The notes under the pieces are model-generated. The model saw only the letters and a program-made list of their open reading frames with translations. It was not told the DNA's origin and ran no database searches. A stretch of DNA of 64,000 bases from an uncultured archaeon (lineage in GTDB: Archaea; Iainarchaeota; Iainarchaeia; Iainarchaeales; 1-14-0-10-31-34), in assembly GCA_964608675.1 (NCBI GenBank), contig CAZSOZ010000004.1:1-64000 (forward strand), in the 5' to 3' direction. Shown in pieces: positions 46,020 through 53,697 of this stretch (position 1 is the stretch's first letter; each line of letters starts with the position of its first letter). A program made the translations under genes and the position numbers.

Positions 46020-46430
46020 TTATTCGCCTAAAACTTTTACTAGAATTCGTTTGTTTCTTTGTCCGTCAAATTCAGCGTAATAAATTTGTTCCCATGTTCC
46101 AAAATCAAGTTTTCCTTTGGTTACTGCAATTAAACTTTCTCTGCCCATTATTGTTCTCATTAAATGAGAAAAAGCATTGTCTTCGCCGGTTAAATTATGC
46201 TTGTATTTTTTGTTTGGAACAAGTTTTTTCAGCCATTCTTGGTAATCCTGAATTAACCCTGTTTCAGCGTCATTAATGTAAACAGAAGAAGTGATATGCA
46301 TTGGATTAACCAATACTATTCCTTCTTTTATTTTGCTTTTCTTTACAATCTCTTCAACTTTTTCTGTGATGTTAATGAATTCAATTCTGTTTTTTGTGTT
46401 AAAGTAAAGGTATTCTGTATGAGATTTCAT
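46020..46430 (-). CDS. yjbQ: YjbQ/UPF0047 (secondary thiamine-phosphate synthase) family protein
   Basis: [23 protein letters not shown] and [13 protein letters not shown]. Confidence 0.92.
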
Positions 46431-46502
46431 AATAAGTTTTTTGTTTACAAACTCTTTTATTTTTTTTTGGTGTAACTGTTGTCTTTAAACAGGTTTTTTG
46501 GA

Positions 46503-46706
46503 TTAAGCGATTGCAGTTTGTCTGGGTAGCATTGCTTTTAGCATATCTATTGTAGTTTTGCTTGCATTTAATATTTCTATTTCAACCGGCTTGTTTTCTT
46601 TGGTGTAGTGTGTAATTATATCTCCTTCTTGTTCTGCAAAATCAGGTTTTTCAGATCTAAGCTCTATTACCATTATATCTGTTTGCTTATCATATTTATA
46701 TTTCAT
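46503..46706 (-). CDS. DUF2283-family putative antitoxin
   Basis: YDKQTDIMVI...PVEIEILNAS. Confidence 0.85.
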   Translation of the reverse strand: MKYKYDKQTDIMVIELRSEKPDFAEQEGDIITHYTKENKPVEIEILNASKTTIDMLKAMLPRQTAIA

Positions 46707-46932
46707 ATCTTTCCCTCTTTGATTTATAAGTGGTTATGACTGTTAGGGAGTTAATGGTTTTTTCATATATAACTCTTATCACATAGCCGTTTAAAGGCTT
46801 TTGTGCAATTTTTCTGTTGTAATTTCCTTCAATAACTATTTTGGGGGAATTCACGCAATCAGTTACCTGTTTTTCACTCAAACAGTATTTTTTCATTCTC
46901 TCTTTTGCGTGACTTGAAATTTCTATTTTCAT
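46696..46932 (-). CDS. DUF4258-family putative RelE/BrnT-like toxin
   Basis: SHAKERM, IRVIYE and VITTY; overlaps the DUF2283 gene. Confidence 0.85.
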   Translation of the reverse strand: MKIEISSHAKERMKKYCLSEKQVTDCVNSPKIVIEGNYNRKIAQKPLNGYVIRVIYEKTINSLTVITTYKSKRERYEI

Positions 46933-47036: not shown

Positions 47037-47331
47037 ATGACTGGAGAAAAAGAAATTCTTCTTAGCAGAAAAATTCATTTTGTCCCTTTGGCTATTCTTT
47101 TTTTATTTTTTTTTGATTGTTTTTTATTTTTTTGATGTTGGTGGGGCAAGTCCCTTCAAAGAAAAATCAATTTATTTTAGGTATCTTGCTATCGTGCTCT
47201 ATGCTTTAGGAATGGTTGTTTTAATCGAGGTTGGTACCAGAATCATGGTTTACGTTTATGGCGGGTCAATGAAACCAGAAGACTCAAGAAAAAAACTTTA
47301 CAGTGACTTAAAGAATAAACACAAAAAATAG
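47037..47331 (+). pseudogene. Small two-TM protein, apparently frameshifted in a poly-T tract near 47098-47114
   Basis: ATG 47037 frame (MTGEKEILLSRKIHFVPLAIL) is out of phase with the downstream open frame (FYFFLIVFYFFDVGG...KNKHKK). Confidence 0.45.
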
Positions 47332-47350
47332 CATATTACTTATACGTAAT

Positions 47351-47494
47351 CTAAGTAATATGCATTGGATTAACTAAAACTAGTCCTTCTTTTATTTTGC
47401 TTTTAGAAACAACTTCTTCAACTTCTTTTGTAATGTTAACAAATTCTATTCTGTTTTTTGTTTTAATTTCAAGGTATTCAGTGAAAGATTTCAT
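47351..47494 (-). pseudogene. Truncated 5' paralog of yjbQ (47 aa)
   Basis: [47 protein letters not shown] aligns with residues 1-47 of 46020..46430. Confidence 0.85.
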
Positions 47495-47569
47495 AAAAAT
47501 TTTTTTGTTTCAACATGTTTTTAATGAATTCCCTTTAATTTATTTTTACTGTATTTAAGGTGTTTTTTT

Positions 47570-48430
47570 TTGATTGCAAAAAACAATAAAGCAAAATTGT
47601 GTTCTTCATGCAAAGAACTTAATCTTCACTGTGGGACAATTGTTTTTTGCACTGACAGAAGAGTTAATGCTGAAGCTGTTTCTAATGCTTTAAAAAAACA
47701 GGGTTTTCCTGAAGAACTGGTTTTTTGCGTTAAAAGCTCTTATGGTCATGAAAGTGCAGGGAACAAAATTCATGAAAGCGATCCTTTAATTGCACAGGCG
47801 TTAAAATTGGGAATTGGCCCAGGGCATTTCGGAAAAATTGTTTCTGTTTTTGGGCACAGCAGTAAATGTGGGGGAATGAATGCACAGCATGAACTGCATA
47901 AACTTGAATTTTTAATTGAAAAAGAAAAATTAAATAAAAACAAAAAAAAAGCAAAAGAATTAAAAGAAAAATTAAATGAATTAAAAAAAGATGCAATTTC
48001 AGGATGGGTTGCATTAGATTTAAATGAATTTAAGTCTTTGGTTTCAGAACTTAAAAAAAAGTTTTTAGAAAAAGAATTTGAAGAATTCTTGTTTTCTGAT
48101 GACTTCAGAATTCTTTTAGAAGAATTTAATGTTTTTGTTCAATTAAAAAAATTAATTAACCGCAAAGATTTTCAGGAATATTATTTTAATGCTTTTAAGG
48201 ATGGAAGAGGGAAAATTAAATTGATTGCAGGAATTTATTCTCCTAAAGAAAAAATTTGCAGGGGCGCTTACTGTACTTCAACAGGAAAAGTAAACTTTGA
48301 TTTTCCTTTTATTTATTCTGTGTTTGGAGAAAAAAAAGTAAAAGAAATACTTTCTTTTTTTAATTTATTTCATTTAAAAGGAAAACCTGAAATAGAATAC
48401 AAAATAAGTTATGGGAAGGAAGGGATTTGA
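47570..48430 (+). CDS. Divergent beta-class carbonic anhydrase-like protein
   Basis: FCTDRRV (CxDxR), AGN, FGHSSKCGG (His/Cys ligands), EFNVFVQLKKL and IAGIY; 3' end overlaps tRNA-Ile. Confidence 0.65.
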   Translation: MIAKNNKAKLCSSCKELNLHCGTIVFCTDRRVNAEAVSNALKKQGFPEELVFCVKSSYGHESAGNKIHESDPLIAQALKLGIGPGHFGKIVSVFGHSSKCGGMNAQHELHKLEFLIEKEKLNKNKKKAKELKEKLNELKKDAISGWVALDLNEFKSLVSELKKKFLEKEFEEFLFSDDFRILLEEFNVFVQLKKLINRKDFQEYYFNAFKDGRGKIKLIAGIYSPKEKICRGAYCTSTGKVNFDFPFIYSVFGEKKVKEILSFFNLFHLKGKPEIEYKISYGKEGI

Positions 48431-48550: not shown

Positions 48551-48612
48551 TGAAGTTTATGCTAAGCAGTAATAAAAAGTACTTCAAGTAAAACAATTTA
48601 AACTTAATGAAA

Positions 48613-48685
48613 TAGCCCCGAGGAGATTCGAACTCCTGTCAACGGGTCCAAAGCCCGCCATCCTTGGCCACTAGACTACGGGGCT
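48613..48685 (-). tRNA. tRNA-Gln(TTG)
   Basis: AGCCCCG/CGGGGCT acceptor (archaeal A1-U72), GCGGG-CTTTGGA-CCCGT anticodon arm, AGGAG-TTCGAAT-CTCCT T arm. Confidence 0.95.
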
Positions 48686-48920
48686 AAAAATGGGCTATTA
48701 ATGTAATTAAAACAGAAATAGACTATAAAAAAGTGTGGGAAAAAACTATTAAATATTAATAAGCCGGCAAAAACAAAACAAAAAAAGAAGATAAATCTGA
48801 AAAAGCTAAAGGAGCTTTGTGTAAATAGTGCTTGAAATTGCTTACTTTTTACACAGAGTGAACACTTTTTACACAGGTTAAATTTATTAATTTCAAAAGT
48901 TAATAATTTAGTTGATTAAA

Positions 48921-49163
48921 ATGGCTGACTTTTGGGAAACTATTTTTTATATTGCTTTAGGAGTTTTTATTTTGTGGGCTTTGTTAAAAAGTTTTGGTAT
49001 AATACAAAGTCCTGCATGGCTTGAAGTTGGCGTTCCAGCAGTTTCTGGCGGAGTAGCTATTGGAAGTTTTTATCAAAAGTTTAGGCAATTAGAAAAAACT
49101 GTAGAAGAAATAGGAAAGAAAACTAATGAAGTCTATGAAAAATGTCCTGCAGTTAAGCACTAA
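48921..49163 (+). CDS. Small two-TM plus coiled-coil protein (transposon cargo)
   Basis: Hydrophobic pair followed by KFRQLEKTVEEIGKK. Confidence 0.65.
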   Translation: MADFWETIFYIALGVFILWALLKSFGIIQSPAWLEVGVPAVSGGVAIGSFYQKFRQLEKTVEEIGKKTNEVYEKCPAVKH

Positions 49164-50355
49164 AATTTATTTCTATTCCTAATTCATTTGTTTCATGAAT
49201 TACAACAACTATGTTATGACATAAGACTTTCAATAACAACTCGTTTTTTTGTGCTGTGTGTGTTTTTGATTTCAGGCAGTCGTTAAATTTTGATTTTATC
49301 ATAAAAAATGTTGTTTCTATGTTGCTTCTTTTGTGATAGTGTTGCATGAATTCTTCTTGGTTGAATTTGAAGTAGTGATACATTTTTCTTCAAATGTGGT
49401 TTTTTCCTTTTGGAATTCCTCTTGCACTTTTTTTGAATGGAATGTAAGCTGTTCCGCCAAAGTCATCAATTAAAGCAAGGTTATCTCTTGAACTGTAAGC
49501 CATGTCTGCTGAAAACTCTTGAATATCAAAACCATTTTGTTTTGTTTGTGTGGCTAATGGAATTAAGTTAGGGCTATCTCCTGTGCCTGTTCCATGACTT
49601 TTTGATACTTCACAGCTTGTTATTATGTTTGTTTTTGCTCCGCAGACTGCATGAAGTTTAAGCCATTCATGTCGTCTTTTTGTATTGTGTTTTTCTTTAC
49701 AGTATTCATTAAATTTTGTTGTTCTGAATCCAGTTGAATCAATGCAAAATTTTTCTTCACAAGTTTTCAAAACAATTCCTGACTTTGAAATTAATTGCTT
49801 TAAAGTTTTGGTTATTTGTTTCTTTTGCGTGAAGTGTCCGATTGAAGCAAAACAAGGGACTTTTTGAATTAATCCTTTTTCTTTTGCAAACTTTAAATCT
49901 GACATGAATCTTCTTAAAGAAAATTGAGAATAAACTTTTAGTGCTGAAGCAAACATTAAATCTTTTTCTGAAATTTTAGGTCTGCCAAAACTATAATCTG
50001 CTTCTTCAATGTTTTCTAATAAATCTTTTAGTAATTCCATGAATCTTTCTTTTTCTGTTTCTTGGCTTTTATTGTAAGCACTCCAAGTTTGAGGATAAGT
50101 TAATCTTTTTGTTTCAATTTTGCTTACTCCGTTTTTGATTGTAATTTTTTGTAAATAGTATTGAACTGCAAAAGCGTGTTTACAAGTGCAATCACTATTC
50201 TTATGGTCAGGACAACTACAAGAATAATCCTTTCTAACAAAATAATTTTTATTTCCTGATTGGCTTGGAACTATCCAGCCATCAACTCCGCTTTGAATTG
50301 TTTTAGTTTTTGCAATTTCAAAACCTTTCTTTTTTCTTAAATCCATTTTACTCAA
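49153..50355 (-). pseudogene. SWIM zinc-finger plus DDE transposase (IS4/IS5 clan) interrupted by one in-frame TGA at 49390-49392
   Basis: SWIM CSCPD...CKH; IDSTG, ADMAY and YHKRSNIETTFFMIK (YREK). The two ORFs are in the same frame: NHI*RKMYHY. Confidence 0.9.
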
Positions 50356-50361
50356 CCTCTC

Positions 50362-50412
50362 ACATACTTATTAAGTACATACTTTATAAGTGTATACTAT
50401 TAAAAACCTTTC
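50362..50412 (-). promoter_or_regulatory. Transposase promoter (CGAAAGGTTTTTAATA) and tandem 15-bp candidate operator
   Basis: ACATACTTATTAAGT (50362-50376) and ACATACTTTATAAGT (50377-50391), each partly palindromic, lying between the TATA box and the GAGGT RBS. Confidence 0.6.
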
Positions 50413-50431
50413 GGTTCAATAAAGTATATAA

Positions 50432-50632
50432 ATGGGAAATAACTTGTATAGTCCAATGGCAGTATTCAAGAAAAAAATAACAGTAACTATGTTACGTTGT
50501 GAAAGATGTGGTTATGAGTGGCAACAGAGAGGTAAAAAACTCCCTGAAGTGTGTGCTAATCTAAAATGCAAAAGCAGATATTGGAATAGACCAAGACAAC
50601 AACGAAAAACAAAGAAAGATGGTAAAAAATGA
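50432..50632 (+). CDS. Small Zn-ribbon protein, divergent from the transposase (candidate regulator)
   Basis: CERCGYEW...P..CANLKCKS.YWNRPR; basic tail; start may be ATG 50456. Confidence 0.75.
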   Translation: MGNNLYSPMAVFKKKITVTMLRCERCGYEWQQRGKKLPEVCANLKCKSRYWNRPRQQRKTKKDGKK

Positions 50633-51942
50633 GCGTCACAGATAATTCAAGAAGAAGTTTAGGAGTTCATTTAACTTCAGTAAACACATTTAAAAAATAC
50701 GTTTTTCCAAAAATTAAAAACAAAATAAATGACTTTATTTGGGTTGACTTATTTGCAGGAGAAGGCAACCTTATTTTACCTATTCTTGAAAGTATTTCAA
50801 AAGACAAAAGAATTCAATTTTTTAAGGAAAACATTTTCTTGTTTGATATTCAAAAAGAAATGGTTAAAAAATCTGTTGAAAATGCAATAAAATATGGGAT
50901 ACCTAAAGAGATTGCAGAAAAAAACATAATTCAGCAAGATACCTTAAAAAATTTTCCAAAATTTTTACATGAACTAAATAAACCAATTTTCCATATAACT
51001 AACCCCCCTTATCTATATTTAGGGTATATAGGAAAACACAAAGAAATGAATATTCACTTAAGTTATTTTGAAGGATATAATAAAGGATATCAAGACTTAT
51101 ATCAAATTGCCTTAATAAATGACTTAAGAAATAATCTACAAAAAATGATTTACATTATTCCATCAAATTTTTTATTTGGGGCAGTAATTTCAAACAAAAT
51201 AAGAGATGACTTTTTACCACAATACAAAATAAATGAAGCAGTAATTTTTGAAAAAAAAATATTTGAATTTACTGGCACAAATGTAATGATTTGTTTTTTT
51301 GAAAAAACTGAAAAATTAAATAGGATAATTGAATTTAATGCAACAAAAATTAACAGCCACGAAATAACAAGGCACTATATTTTAACTAAAAAAAACAAAT
51401 TTAGGGGCGGAAACTATTTTGAAGAATATGTAAAAACAAGAAAAGCAGTTAACCCCCTTGAAGTTAAATATTATTTAAAACAAGAAGAATTAGAAAAAAA
51501 CAAAGGAAATAATAAAGTCATTCTTTTAGATTCAAAAAATTATACAGGGAAGAGTTACTCGCAAAAAGAATTTTTTGTAAACAATAAGTTATTTAATAAA
51601 ATTAAATCAAATCCTTTGTTTATAAGGACAGTTGATACTGGTTCAGAAGAAGGCAGAGCTGGTTTATACAACATAAAAAAAACTTTTGAAGTTGACGGAA
51701 TTTTTGTTAGTGGTGCAACTTACAGAACAAACCCAATACAACTTTTCATTACTCCAACTTTAAAAAACAATGATTCTGAAAAATTAAAAGAACAATTTAA
51801 TCAAACTCTTGAAAATTTAAGAGATAAAACTGACAGTGAATTTATGACTACTTACAAATATACTAATGGAACAGGAAAGTATATTAGAAAGTATTTAGGG
51901 TTAAGTCAAGCAAAAAAGCTTTTACAAACAATAATTTTGTAA
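50629..51942 (+). CDS. N6-adenine DNA methyltransferase (gamma motif order)
   Basis: Motif I VDLFAGEG, motif IV TNPPY, IIPSNF; intact 437-aa ORF. Confidence 0.88.
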   Translation: MSVTDNSRRSLGVHLTSVNTFKKYVFPKIKNKINDFIWVDLFAGEGNLILPILESISKDKRIQFFKENIFLFDIQKEMVKKSVENAIKYGIPKEIAEKNIIQQDTLKNFPKFLHELNKPIFHITNPPYLYLGYIGKHKEMNIHLSYFEGYNKGYQDLYQIALINDLRNNLQKMIYIIPSNFLFGAVISNKIRDDFLPQYKINEAVIFEKKIFEFTGTNVMICFFEKTEKLNRIIEFNATKINSHEITRHYILTKKNKFRGGNYFEEYVKTRKAVNPLEVKYYLKQEELEKNKGNNKVILLDSKNYTGKSYSQKEFFVNNKLFNKIKSNPLFIRTVDTGSEEGRAGLYNIKKTFEVDGIFVSGATYRTNPIQLFITPTLKNNDSEKLKEQFNQTLENLRDKTDSEFMTTYKYTNGTGKYIRKYLGLSQAKKLLQTIIL

Positions 51943-51948
51943 ACAAAA

Positions 51949-52751
51949 TTATCTTTCATTTTCTTTTATAAAATCAGGTAGTAAAAGAGCACTTAAAGCA
52001 TTTCCTGTTGAATTACAAAGACGTTTATAATATCTGCCACTTTCTTTAAACCAAACTACTCCATCAACTATAGCTATTCTTATAACATTTCCTGATTTTT
52101 CTTCAGAAAATTTAACTATATTAAAATATTGATTATCTTGTCCGCCACCACCAGCAGAAATAAATTTTGCTCCACCAACTATAAACTTTCCATTTTTTAG
52201 TTTGGCAATAAAATCTACATCTCCTTTTTCTTCAAGTTTACATTTTAATTCCTTTTCAGCAAACCATTGCATTTGTTTATCTGAGGCATTAAGAAAGACT
52301 GTTGAATTAGAAACTTTAAAGTCATTTAAAGAAACAGAAGGATATCCTATAGTTTTAACCCATGCCTTAAAAGCGTTTCCTAATCGTTTACTTGCACTTT
52401 TTGGTTCATTACATCTGTCTACAACTTCTCGCCAACTTAATTTTATATCCTTTTTGCTATGCGTTGTGTGGTTTGTGGATTGTTTTCTATTATCTTTTCA
52501 TTAAGCTTTAAAGAGCCCATATATGAATCTTTAATAGGTGCTGCTTCTTTTCTGGAAAGAATTGAAATGCTTTTCACTAATTCTTCCATATTTTTTTCTT
52601 CATACGCTTTTTTTATTTTATTCATTAATTCCTCAGAAATATCTCTCTTTTCTTCTGTTTGTGCAGGATAAACAGAATGGAGTTTATCTAAATATCCTTT
52701 AGAATTAGCAAAATTAATGCTTTTTTCAACCCAATTATTCATATTAACCAA
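51949..52751 (-). pseudogene. Tsp45I-like type II restriction endonuclease, frameshifted near 52446
   Basis: WVEKSINFAN..GYLDKL..VYP, PIKDSY and NPQT; after a frame change KLSWREVVDRCNEPK...NASDKQM...VDFIAK..GKFIVGGAKF..GGGQDNQ. Family recognised from memory. Confidence 0.75.
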
Positions 52752-52804
52752 TAAAATATGCTATTACCTTTATTTAAGTTTTGGGATTTAATAATATTGG
52801 TAGT

Positions 52805-53023
52805 ATGGGCGGTTCATTAAATTACGAAAGAAGTTATGAAAAACTTCAGAAAGCAAGAAGCTTATCGGAAGAAGAAAAAAAAATAATTATGGCACGAAAA
52901 AGAGGGTTTCCTAATTGTAAGGGATTATATCCTGATTGCCCTGAAGTTCCTGATAAAAATTGTAGTCAATGTAAGACCTGCCCTGTTTTAGACGAAACAT
53001 ATGAAAGAAGTTATAAAGTTTAA
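52805..53023 (+). CDS. Small Cys-rich protein (transposon cargo)
   Basis: NCKGLYPDCPEVPDKNCSQCKTCP; ends immediately before the right-end boxes. Confidence 0.55.
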   Translation: MGGSLNYERSYEKLQKARSLSEEEKKIIMARKRGFPNCKGLYPDCPEVPDKNCSQCKTCPVLDETYERSYKV

Positions 53024-53127
53024 GGACTTTTTACACGGTTTTTTTACTTTTTACACAAAAACGACTTTTCACACAAAGCTAGCTAAAGGCAAACCATTAA
53101 ATAGTTCTTTTTGTTTTATTTTTTTTT

Positions 53128-53697
53128 ATGTTAATAAAATTTTTTTTGCCTGCAATTTTGTTTTTATTTTTGTTTTCTTTTGGGTGTTTTGATTTAATTA
53201 AAGAAAGCCCTGGAGAAAAAGCAGTTAAATTGGCTGATCAACTGCCTGAAATTGATGTTACTGAAAGGCTGATTAAAAGTTTTGAGAACTCAGATGAATG
53301 TACTTTGAATGTTTATATTGAAAATTATTCTAGTTTACTGCAGGTTCAGGGAATGGGTTATTTTGAGCCAACACAGGAACAAAGAAAAGAAATGGGGTTG
53401 GCTTTAAATAAAACAAAAGATTGGGTTAATCAATGTAATCCAAGGCTTTCCAGACAACTGGAAATGCAGTCAGAAAACAGTTATGTTGTTTATTATGAAA
53501 TGGAAACAAACAAAGATGCGGTTTGTGATGTTTCTTCTGAAAAAGTGAAAGTTTTTGTTGATTTACGAGAAGAAAAAGCGATAATTGAAGAAGGTTCAGT
53601 TTCTCAAAATAGTATTGAAGTGCTTGAAGAAGTATTGCATTATATGGGACCTTGTGCAGGATTAATGTTTTTTTCATTGACTGTTATTGAAGAATGA
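53128..53697 (+). CDS. Putative lipoprotein
   Basis: SFGC lipobox; acidic body with 4 Cys. Confidence 0.65.
   Translation: MLIKFFLPAILFLFLFSFGCFDLIKESPGEKAVKLADQLPEIDVTERLIKSFENSDECTLNVYIENYSSLLQVQGMGYFEPTQEQRKEMGLALNKTKDWVNQCNPRLSRQLEMQSENSYVVYYEMETNKDAVCDVSSEKVKVFVDLREEKAIIEEGSVSQNSIEVLEEVLHYMGPCAGLMFFSLTVIEE

Follow-up and report, generated by a model that had tools for sequence, protein, structure and literature searches.

Insertion sequences (ISs) of the IS903 type make 9-bp target duplications; the IS903B copy that we used for comparison comes from an E. coli plasmid, where it is part of a composite arrangement. An IS that has passenger genes inside its inverted repeats is a transporter IS (tIS, an ISfinder concept) or unit transposon. 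Restriction-modification (R-M) systems, for their part, favor their own retention by post-segregational killing. R-M units located inside inverted repeats with 8-bp duplications have been described (Furuta, Abe, Kobayashi 2010, PMC2853133). In DPANN archaea, which have tiny genomes, the gain and loss of defense genes are little understood. Here we describe an element in the first 64,000 nucleotides of contig CAZSOZ010000004.1 (forward strand; GenBank assembly GCA_964608675.1, an uncultured archaeon of the Iainarchaeota), a stretch that we call the window. Positions 48813–53080 are very probably a unit (non-composite) transposon that is related to IS5/IS903, carries an R-M payload, was inserted in one piece and is now decaying. 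The element belongs to a widespread family of defense-carrying transposons of which our searches found no description.

Boundaries of the element

An earlier note, made from the sequence alone, had delimited this element by an exact 9-bp target duplication and perfect 10-bp inverted ends, and we confirmed these coordinates: the inverted ends (AGCTTTGTGT at 48813–48822; reverse complement ACACAAAGCT at 53071–53080) enclose 4268 bp that hold a single transposase gene and five further open reading frames (ORFs). The inverted repeat continues imperfectly to 15/17 (AGCTTTGTGTAAATAGT versus AGCTTTGTGTGAAAAGT), and AGCTTTGT is found at both ends. The features that define the boundaries are the following.

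48804–48812, no strand: left copy of the target-site duplication, AGCTAAAGG, identical to 53081–53089
48813–48829, plus strand: terminal inverted repeat at the left, AGCTTTGTGTAAATAGT, perfect over its first 10 nt and matching at 15/17 in all; family consensus [A/G]GCTTTGT
48844–48875, plus strand: two subterminal 12-mers ACTTTTTACACA (48844–48855 and 48864–48875), inverted relative to the left terminal repeat, a layout also found in relatives
53026–53057, plus strand: two subterminal 12-mers (ACTTTTTACACG and ACTTTTTACACA) in the orientation of the right terminal repeat
53064–53080, minus strand: right terminal inverted repeat (reverse complement AGCTTTGTGTGAAAAGT)
53081–53089, no strand: right copy of the target-site duplication, AGCTAAAGG, identical to 48804–48812

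In the 1.2-Mb genome (both strands), the 9-mer AGCTAAAGG occurs 8 times and the 10-mer AGCTTTGTGT 3 times. The 12-mer ACTTTTTACACA has three exact genome occurrences (48844, 48864 and 53046), all inside the element, and a copy with one mismatch lies at 53026. The real window holds one case of an exact 9-bp direct repeat that abuts an exact 10-bp inverted repeat, with the two sides 0.8–12 kb apart; however, 47 of 200 first-order Markov shuffles also yield such a pair (mean 0.27 per window), so the geometry by itself is not significant. We take the pair as the real ends of the element because a transposase gene lies between its two halves and because 37 other distinct bounded relatives (described below) have the same end consensus and a 9-bp duplication.

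The frequency of such pairs in shuffled sequence would also suit a different history, that is, a short IS that lies beside an independently acquired R-M island, with a fortuitous outer repeat pair; the variability of the tRNA-adjacent region among same-genus genomes points in the same direction. We consider this history extremely unlikely, given that the right end has the family terminal motif together with two subterminal copies that are absent elsewhere in the genome, and that the same architecture recurs, with other cargo, in the 37 relatives.

A family of elements with variable cargo

The family was assembled from loci in related genomes, in genomes chosen as one per species (57 loci) and in metagenomes (33 loci), each searched for ends enclosing the transposase; an element was called bounded if it has [A/G]GCTTTG-type inverted repeats and a 9-bp duplication. 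Bounded elements were found at 29/57 species-genome loci and 9/33 metagenome loci, in addition to two loci from related genomes (L019 and L021). Removal of duplicates (L033 = L021, L091 = L019, L092 = L034) leaves 7 non-duplicate metagenome loci and, with the window included, 38 distinct bounded elements. Thirty-six of these were annotated and range from 2571 to 8829 bp; two others, L056 and the decayed L116, were not, and the sizes within this pair are 2205 and 8353 bp. The 9-bp duplication is exact in 34/36 annotated elements and matches at 8 of 9 positions in 2/36; the duplication sequences differ, with 25 different duplications listed and no evident target specificity.

All 36 annotated elements carry cargo. 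A DNA methyltransferase domain is present in 27, usually with a recognizable endonuclease or as a type IIG fusion (MunI, BglII, NgoFVII-like, GmrSD, Eco57I/MmeI-like); four more contain genes linked to defense by PADLOC or Pfam (DruA and HerA, an Ago-associated domain, PDC-S01, HEC-09), giving R-M or other defense-linked cargo in 31/36. One element carries a PIN/DUF433 pair, and the cargo of four others is of no recognized kind. As a control, the 182 flank ORFs that are ≥150 aa long and lie within 5 kb outside the elements were sampled, and 150 of them were scanned: a methyltransferase domain is present in 2/150, and the other flank ORFs are ribosomal, tRNA-synthetase, FtsZ, proteasome, TFIIB/TFIIE and similar genes. 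The proposal that the locus is a non-composite unit transposon with a defense payload is thus borne out both at the locus and across bounded relatives with variable cargo, and the same ends, 9-bp duplications and variable cargo for which the earlier note suggested that homologs be searched are found in the 37 other distinct elements.

The exchange of cargo is best seen by comparing the window element with L089, a 6082-bp element with its own duplication TGAAAACCA. The two are 88% identical in nucleotide sequence in the transposase and 83% in the adjacent end, and their similarity ends at the borders of the transposase ORF: L089 contains a different methyltransferase with a specificity subunit, and the small gene between end and transposase also differs.

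A divergent Zn-ribbon gene, which the note had expected in homologs, is not universal. The small gene divergent from the transposase that heads the cargo operon encodes a Zn-ribbon protein in the window, L018, L050 and L057; in other relatives it is replaced by RHH (ribbon-helix-helix)-like genes (L021, L042, L043, L046, L049 and L063, by sequence reading rather than by a Pfam match) or by AbrB/MazE-like genes (L086 by Pfam match, L019 and L041 by sequence reading). The position of the small gene is conserved and its fold is not; this suits a regulator of the cargo or transposase better than a core transposition protein.

The combination of a SWIM-type motif with a DDE domain, first regarded as unusual, proved not to be rare: 6500 of 8000 scored candidates match the transposase at E ≤ 1e−3, and PF04434 is precomputed on 41 of the 120 homologs listed (our own count). 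Within the phylum of the window, 28/215 species genomes match the transposase at E ≤ 1e−60, including 4/6 of the genus (the window's genome counted), and the matching genomes have one to three transposase matches each. The distribution of the family is patchy and low-copy, unlike that of a proliferating IS. The closest titled relatives of the transposase are in metagenome-assembled genomes (MAGs) named Iainarchaeum/ainarchaeum, Micrarchaeota and Woese-, Pace-, Nano- and Aenigmatarchaeota.

As a separate observation, one member (L084, 8835–11832) has a broken transposase of its own and contains, nested within it, an IS66-family transposase gene as well as another PF01609 gene.

Architecture of the ends

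We searched the 110 bp adjoining each end for subterminal copies of the element's own terminal 12-mer, allowing up to 3 mismatches. At least one copy is present at both ends in 36/36 annotated elements, at a density 5.7 times that of the interior. The copies co-vary with the terminal variant, that is, TGTGTAAA-, TGTTTAAT-, TGTAAAAT- and TGCCTATA-type ends are each accompanied by matching copies. In 23/36 elements the transposase-proximal copies are inverted relative to the terminal repeat and the copies at the other end are direct, so the ends are asymmetric multi-site structures; the arrangement is mirrored in 4/36 and, at this loose threshold, mixed in 9/36. The terminal and subterminal 12-mers are putative binding sites of the transposase, possibly read by its SWIM domain.

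A same-genus element (L018, G001:C27, 357 to ~4556), which contains a Zn-ribbon gene, a C5 methyltransferase, Vsr and a helix-turn-helix protein, has a TGTGTAAA-type left end, but at its right end and in its subterminal repeats it has the GCTACTAAAGT type, as in L080. The 9-mers that flank it match only when their register is shifted, and L018 may be a recombinant of two end types.

Genes and lesions of the window copy

The genes and intergenic region of the window copy are arranged as follows.

48912–49163, plus strand: 83-aa ORF with two hydrophobic stretches, in a variable slot between end and transposase
49153–50355, minus strand: DDE transposase pseudogene of 400 codons (PF01609) with an N-terminal CxCx9CxH SWIM-type motif and an in-frame TGA at 49390–49392
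50356–50431, no strand: intergenic region from which the transposase gene and the cargo operon diverge, with promoters predicted from gene layout
50432–50632, plus strand: 66-aa Zn-ribbon ORF, candidate regulator, with weak Zn-ribbon matches and a 4-nt overlap with the methyltransferase start
50629–51942, plus strand: intact 437-aa N6-adenine DNA methyltransferase (PF02384) with DLFAGEGN and NPPY motifs
51949–52751, minus strand: frameshifted Tsp45I-family type II restriction endonuclease (PF06300; PADLOC REase_II), broken at ~52441–52448
52781–53023, plus strand: 80-aa Cys-rich ORF with the core FPNCKGLYPDCPE...C.TCP, divergent from the endonuclease

The ORFs are as the note had listed them, except that the transposase gene is interrupted by the TGA and the endonuclease gene is split by the frameshift. 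The PF01609 match of the transposase (73.9 bits versus a cutoff of 23; 1.9e−20) spans the in-frame TGA, and the Y-2-R-3-E-6-K motif YHKRSNIETTFFMIK is located downstream of it. In an alignment with 10 homologs of 61–92% identity, the position of the TGA is occupied by Trp in 10/10, that is, the lesion is TGG to TGA; in the same alignment, C46, C48, C58 and H60 of the CxCx9CxH motif are invariant. Because TGA terminates 187 of the 618 long ORFs of the genome, it is an ordinary stop here, and its use as a sense codon was rejected. The YREK motif lies 3′ of the stop, and the truncated product therefore lacks the catalytic Glu.

The window copy is unable to move by itself, because the stop precedes the YREK motif and the genome has no other copy of the ends. 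Mobilization in trans is unlikely, because no other ends are present in the genome and the remaining transposase matches, which are on other contigs, are only 27–46% identical. A composite transposon was also considered and was rejected, since the element contains one transposase gene and the others are located on those other contigs. The same genome encodes an intact 388-aa paralog (G000:C1:337111-338061; L002 1324-2490) that is 40% identical to the window transposase and has an N-terminal CxxC...CxxC zinc ribbon instead of the SWIM-type motif; no ends of this paralogous transposase were found within its 1.3-kb flanks.

The payload is a type II R-M module that consists of an operon of the Zn-ribbon and N6-adenine methyltransferase genes, a convergent Tsp45I-family endonuclease gene and the Cys-rich gene. 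The methyltransferase (27.7 bits against PF02384, cutoff 20.4) has the NPPY motif and adjoins the endonuclease as its candidate partner; by family, the specificity of the two enzymes would be of the GTSAC type. Positions 1–95 of the PF06300 profile match in one frame and positions 97–258 of 260 in the other, with no intact single ORF; because the two halves of the profile fall in two frames, the lesion is a single frameshift, and at most the methyltransferase is therefore still functional.

Could the element instead be active by recoding, with stop-codon read-through at the transposase TGA and a programmed frameshift in the endonuclease gene? ISs often use programmed frameshifts, and the transposase frame is both open and conserved past the TGA, with PF01609 extending across it. 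Nevertheless, recoding is very unlikely: the ten homologs have Trp and no stop at this position, 38 of the 40 listed matches of the phylum scan have no internal stop (the exceptions are the window copy and one relative, with one TGA each), TGA is a common stop in this genome, and the Pfam model represents the genes of the Tsp45I family as one ORF.

It is also unlikely that the organism carries an intact element, with the TGA and the frameshift being either errors of sequencing or assembly or minority alleles that the assembler fixed. The stretch is present in three runs of one study. Contigs from one of these (run X2) span both junctions of the element unchanged (48659–49169 and 52806–53135) and match 49203–49773 and 52003–52762 with no differences or gaps, so that both lesion regions are reproduced, although the run may be the data from which the assembly was made; in our judgement, two independent errors in 4.3 kb would also be unusual for a short-read assembly. 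Errors are favored by the source, a 53-contig MAG, by the location of the frameshift beside a T5 run and by a depth over the element of only ~3–5 in the covering run.

The 83-aa hydrophobic ORF has no family match in Pfam, NCBIfam or PADLOC and is not conserved in L088 and L089, the transposases of which are 88–91% identical in nucleotide sequence. Homologs of the Zn-ribbon ORF are small ORFs 5′ of methyltransferases in L018, L050 and L057; in the ESM Atlas the ORF finds only unnamed small rubredoxin-like clusters (score 0.92). The 80-aa Cys-rich ORF has no family match in Pfam, NCBIfam or PADLOC and nothing in the ESM Atlas. Its core FPNCKGLYPDCPE...C.TCP also occurs directly 3′ of methyltransferase-like genes at L029 (5292–5498) and L028 (7111–7305), where no GGCTTTG-type element ends were seen; the Cys-rich ORF may be a small accessory protein or regulator of R-M systems in these archaea. 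The Zn-ribbon and Cys-rich proteins are candidate regulators of the cargo.

Host and insertion site

The host genome (1.2 Mb in 53 contigs, metagenome-assembled) is 94% complete and has 32% GC. The window contains, with housekeeping genes, a GatE-type ORF (GatB_N, GAD and GatB_Yqey domains); we take GatE to be specific to archaea. A DPANN-like label for the host is reasonable, because the closest titled relatives of the transposase are located in DPANN MAGs.

The element lies 126 bp upstream of tRNA-Gln. Flanking genes match those of same-genus genomes at 74–89%. Because the DNA between these genes fails to align and the order of the tRNA region has changed, a single-copy AGCTAAAGG site cannot be read there. 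A hypothetical empty-site 14-mer has no match in the genome.

The surroundings of the element vary in other ways. Three small ORFs (46503–46706 and 46696–46932 on the minus strand, 47080–47331 on the plus strand) lie between the copies of a 171-nt direct repeat (46289–46459 and 47353–47523), which are 81% identical and offset by 1064 nt; same-genus genomes pass from ~46433 directly to tRNA-Ile at 48411. The match of the tRNA-Gln (48612–48686 in the window) is split by ~47 nt, intron-like, in the same-genus genomes G001:C31 and G004:C120, and the orientation of tRNA-Gln relative to tRNA-Ile varies among same-genus genomes.

Several results, together with the recurrence of the repeat geometry in shuffled windows, weigh against a decaying unit transposon of an IS5/IS903-related lineage that was inserted in one piece. 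No empty site was seen in related genomes (BLAST of the flanks at five same-genus syntenic loci; the 10-kb span against 40 genomes), and no empty allele was seen in the read-derived contigs of run X2, in which the listed joints have sides of 20–25 letters and are not at the element ends; the case for insertion as a unit is therefore based on the duplication and on the pattern across the family. For the two lesions, confirmation comes only from contigs of low depth, and the runs behind these contigs are possibly the assembly's own source. PF04434 gives the window copy no match at E ≤ 0.1, and the window transposase scores 121.1 bits on its best IS model (NF033579, see below), below the cutoff of 140, with intact relatives at 116.5–117.6. 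The PF02384 match of the methyltransferase is weak (E 2.2e−6), and sequence searches of PADLOC, NCBIfam and the PDB gave no match for this protein. For the family, the loci that lack two detectable ends (28/57 and 24/33, mostly cut by contig ends or with no second end) are outside the cargo counts, the bounded relatives are related to one another so that the counts are not independent, and L031 is possibly a bare 1530-bp copy that has no duplication.

Proposed mechanism and significance

By analogy with IS903, the chemistry would be cut-and-paste. A single DDE transposase would bind the terminal and subterminal sites, perhaps via its SWIM region, and cut at the GGCTTTG termini; a 9-bp stagger on insertion would give the AGCTAAAGG duplication, and anything located between the ends would be transported with them. 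An R-M cargo may favor retention of the element through post-segregational killing. In the window copy, the endonuclease would have been lost, and the transposase subsequently or as well, leaving an immobile element with a fixed orphan methyltransferase.

More broadly, we propose, tentatively and at slightly less than even odds, that this IS903-derived, SWIM-bearing lineage is a dedicated shuttle of defense systems across DPANN and some other archaea. In this view, all bounded members bear cargo, mostly R-M, in slots on both sides of the transposase whose content turns over faster than the transposase diverges, and the conserved, asymmetric three-site ends co-vary with the terminal sequence. 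If so, R-M systems could owe much of their spread among these small-genome archaea to this family, and such ends would amount to a transposition design that is not known from IS5-family elements. The signature of the family ([A/G]GCTTTG ends, a 9-bp duplication and a SWIM-type DDE transposase) is simple to search and allows the cargo to be delimited to a single base; the flux of defense genes, the exchange of cargo and decay (e.g., the orphan methyltransferase forming in the window) are thus directly countable in metagenomes. The compact single-protein transposase with its multi-site asymmetric ends is also a subject for biochemical study.

Comparison with known systems

Our literature searches on IS903/IS5, on SWIM and on archaeal cargo transposons yielded no description of this family. 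The main text of a 2026 survey of archaeal ISs (PMC13343696) does not contain SWIM, IS903 or passenger, and its supplements might list such elements; the accessible text of another archaeal IS survey (PMC6563490) mentions neither SWIM nor cargo.

The transposase was classified with the NCBIfam IS transposase models. The note had placed it in the IS4 clan; this placement was rejected, because the IS4 model (NF033592) gives 22.5 bits versus a cutoff of 115 and matches residues 331–383 only. The best model is NF033579 (IS5_2), which is matched over profile positions 3–288 of 289 and on which IS903B scores 356 bits. IS903B (1057 bp) has an 18/18 inverted repeat that starts with GGCTTTGT. Alignment of its catalytic region with that of the intact homolog P0001 (194 columns) gives 28% identity. 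Because the best model is common to both and the end motif GGCTTTGT, which is the consensus of the window family, is shared, the nearest named group is IS5/IS903, to which the window lineage is an outlier with an extra N-terminal domain.

IS903/IS903B and the window element thus share a PF01609 DDE transposase with Y-2-R-3-E-6-K, the best model and inverted repeats that begin with GGCTTTGT. They differ in that IS903B has one 322-aa ORF and a single 18-bp inverted repeat, whereas members of the window family are 2.6–8.8 kb long and have cargo, ~90 extra N-terminal transposase residues with the SWIM-type motif and extra subterminal end sites. SWIM zinc fingers, located at the C-terminus, are also carried by the transposases of eukaryotic MULE/MuDR elements; a SWIM-type CxCxnCxH motif attached to a transposase is the point of likeness, and the catalytic families differ (Mutator-type versus PF01609 IS4/IS5-type).

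As in a tIS or unit transposon, the window element has one transposase, passengers between the inverted repeats and a duplication outside them; unlike a tIS, the 36 annotated members always bear cargo, which is mostly defense-related and is located on either or both sides of the transposase. The ends of Tn7 resemble those of the window family in being asymmetric and having multiple transposase sites. Tn7-like elements move by multi-protein machinery with target selectors, whereas the window family has a single DDE transposase and no evident target specificity.

The R-M units of Furuta, Abe and Kobayashi share with the window element a mobile R-M unit, inverted repeats and a short target duplication; they are isolated bacterial cases (PMC2853133), mostly with no transposase (one has a transposase-like gene that is likely inactive), whereas the window family has a defined transposase lineage and an end consensus that recur in many archaeal genomes. 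Tn7-like transposons have cargo dominated by defense systems (Benler et al. 2021, PMC8649781), as does the window family.

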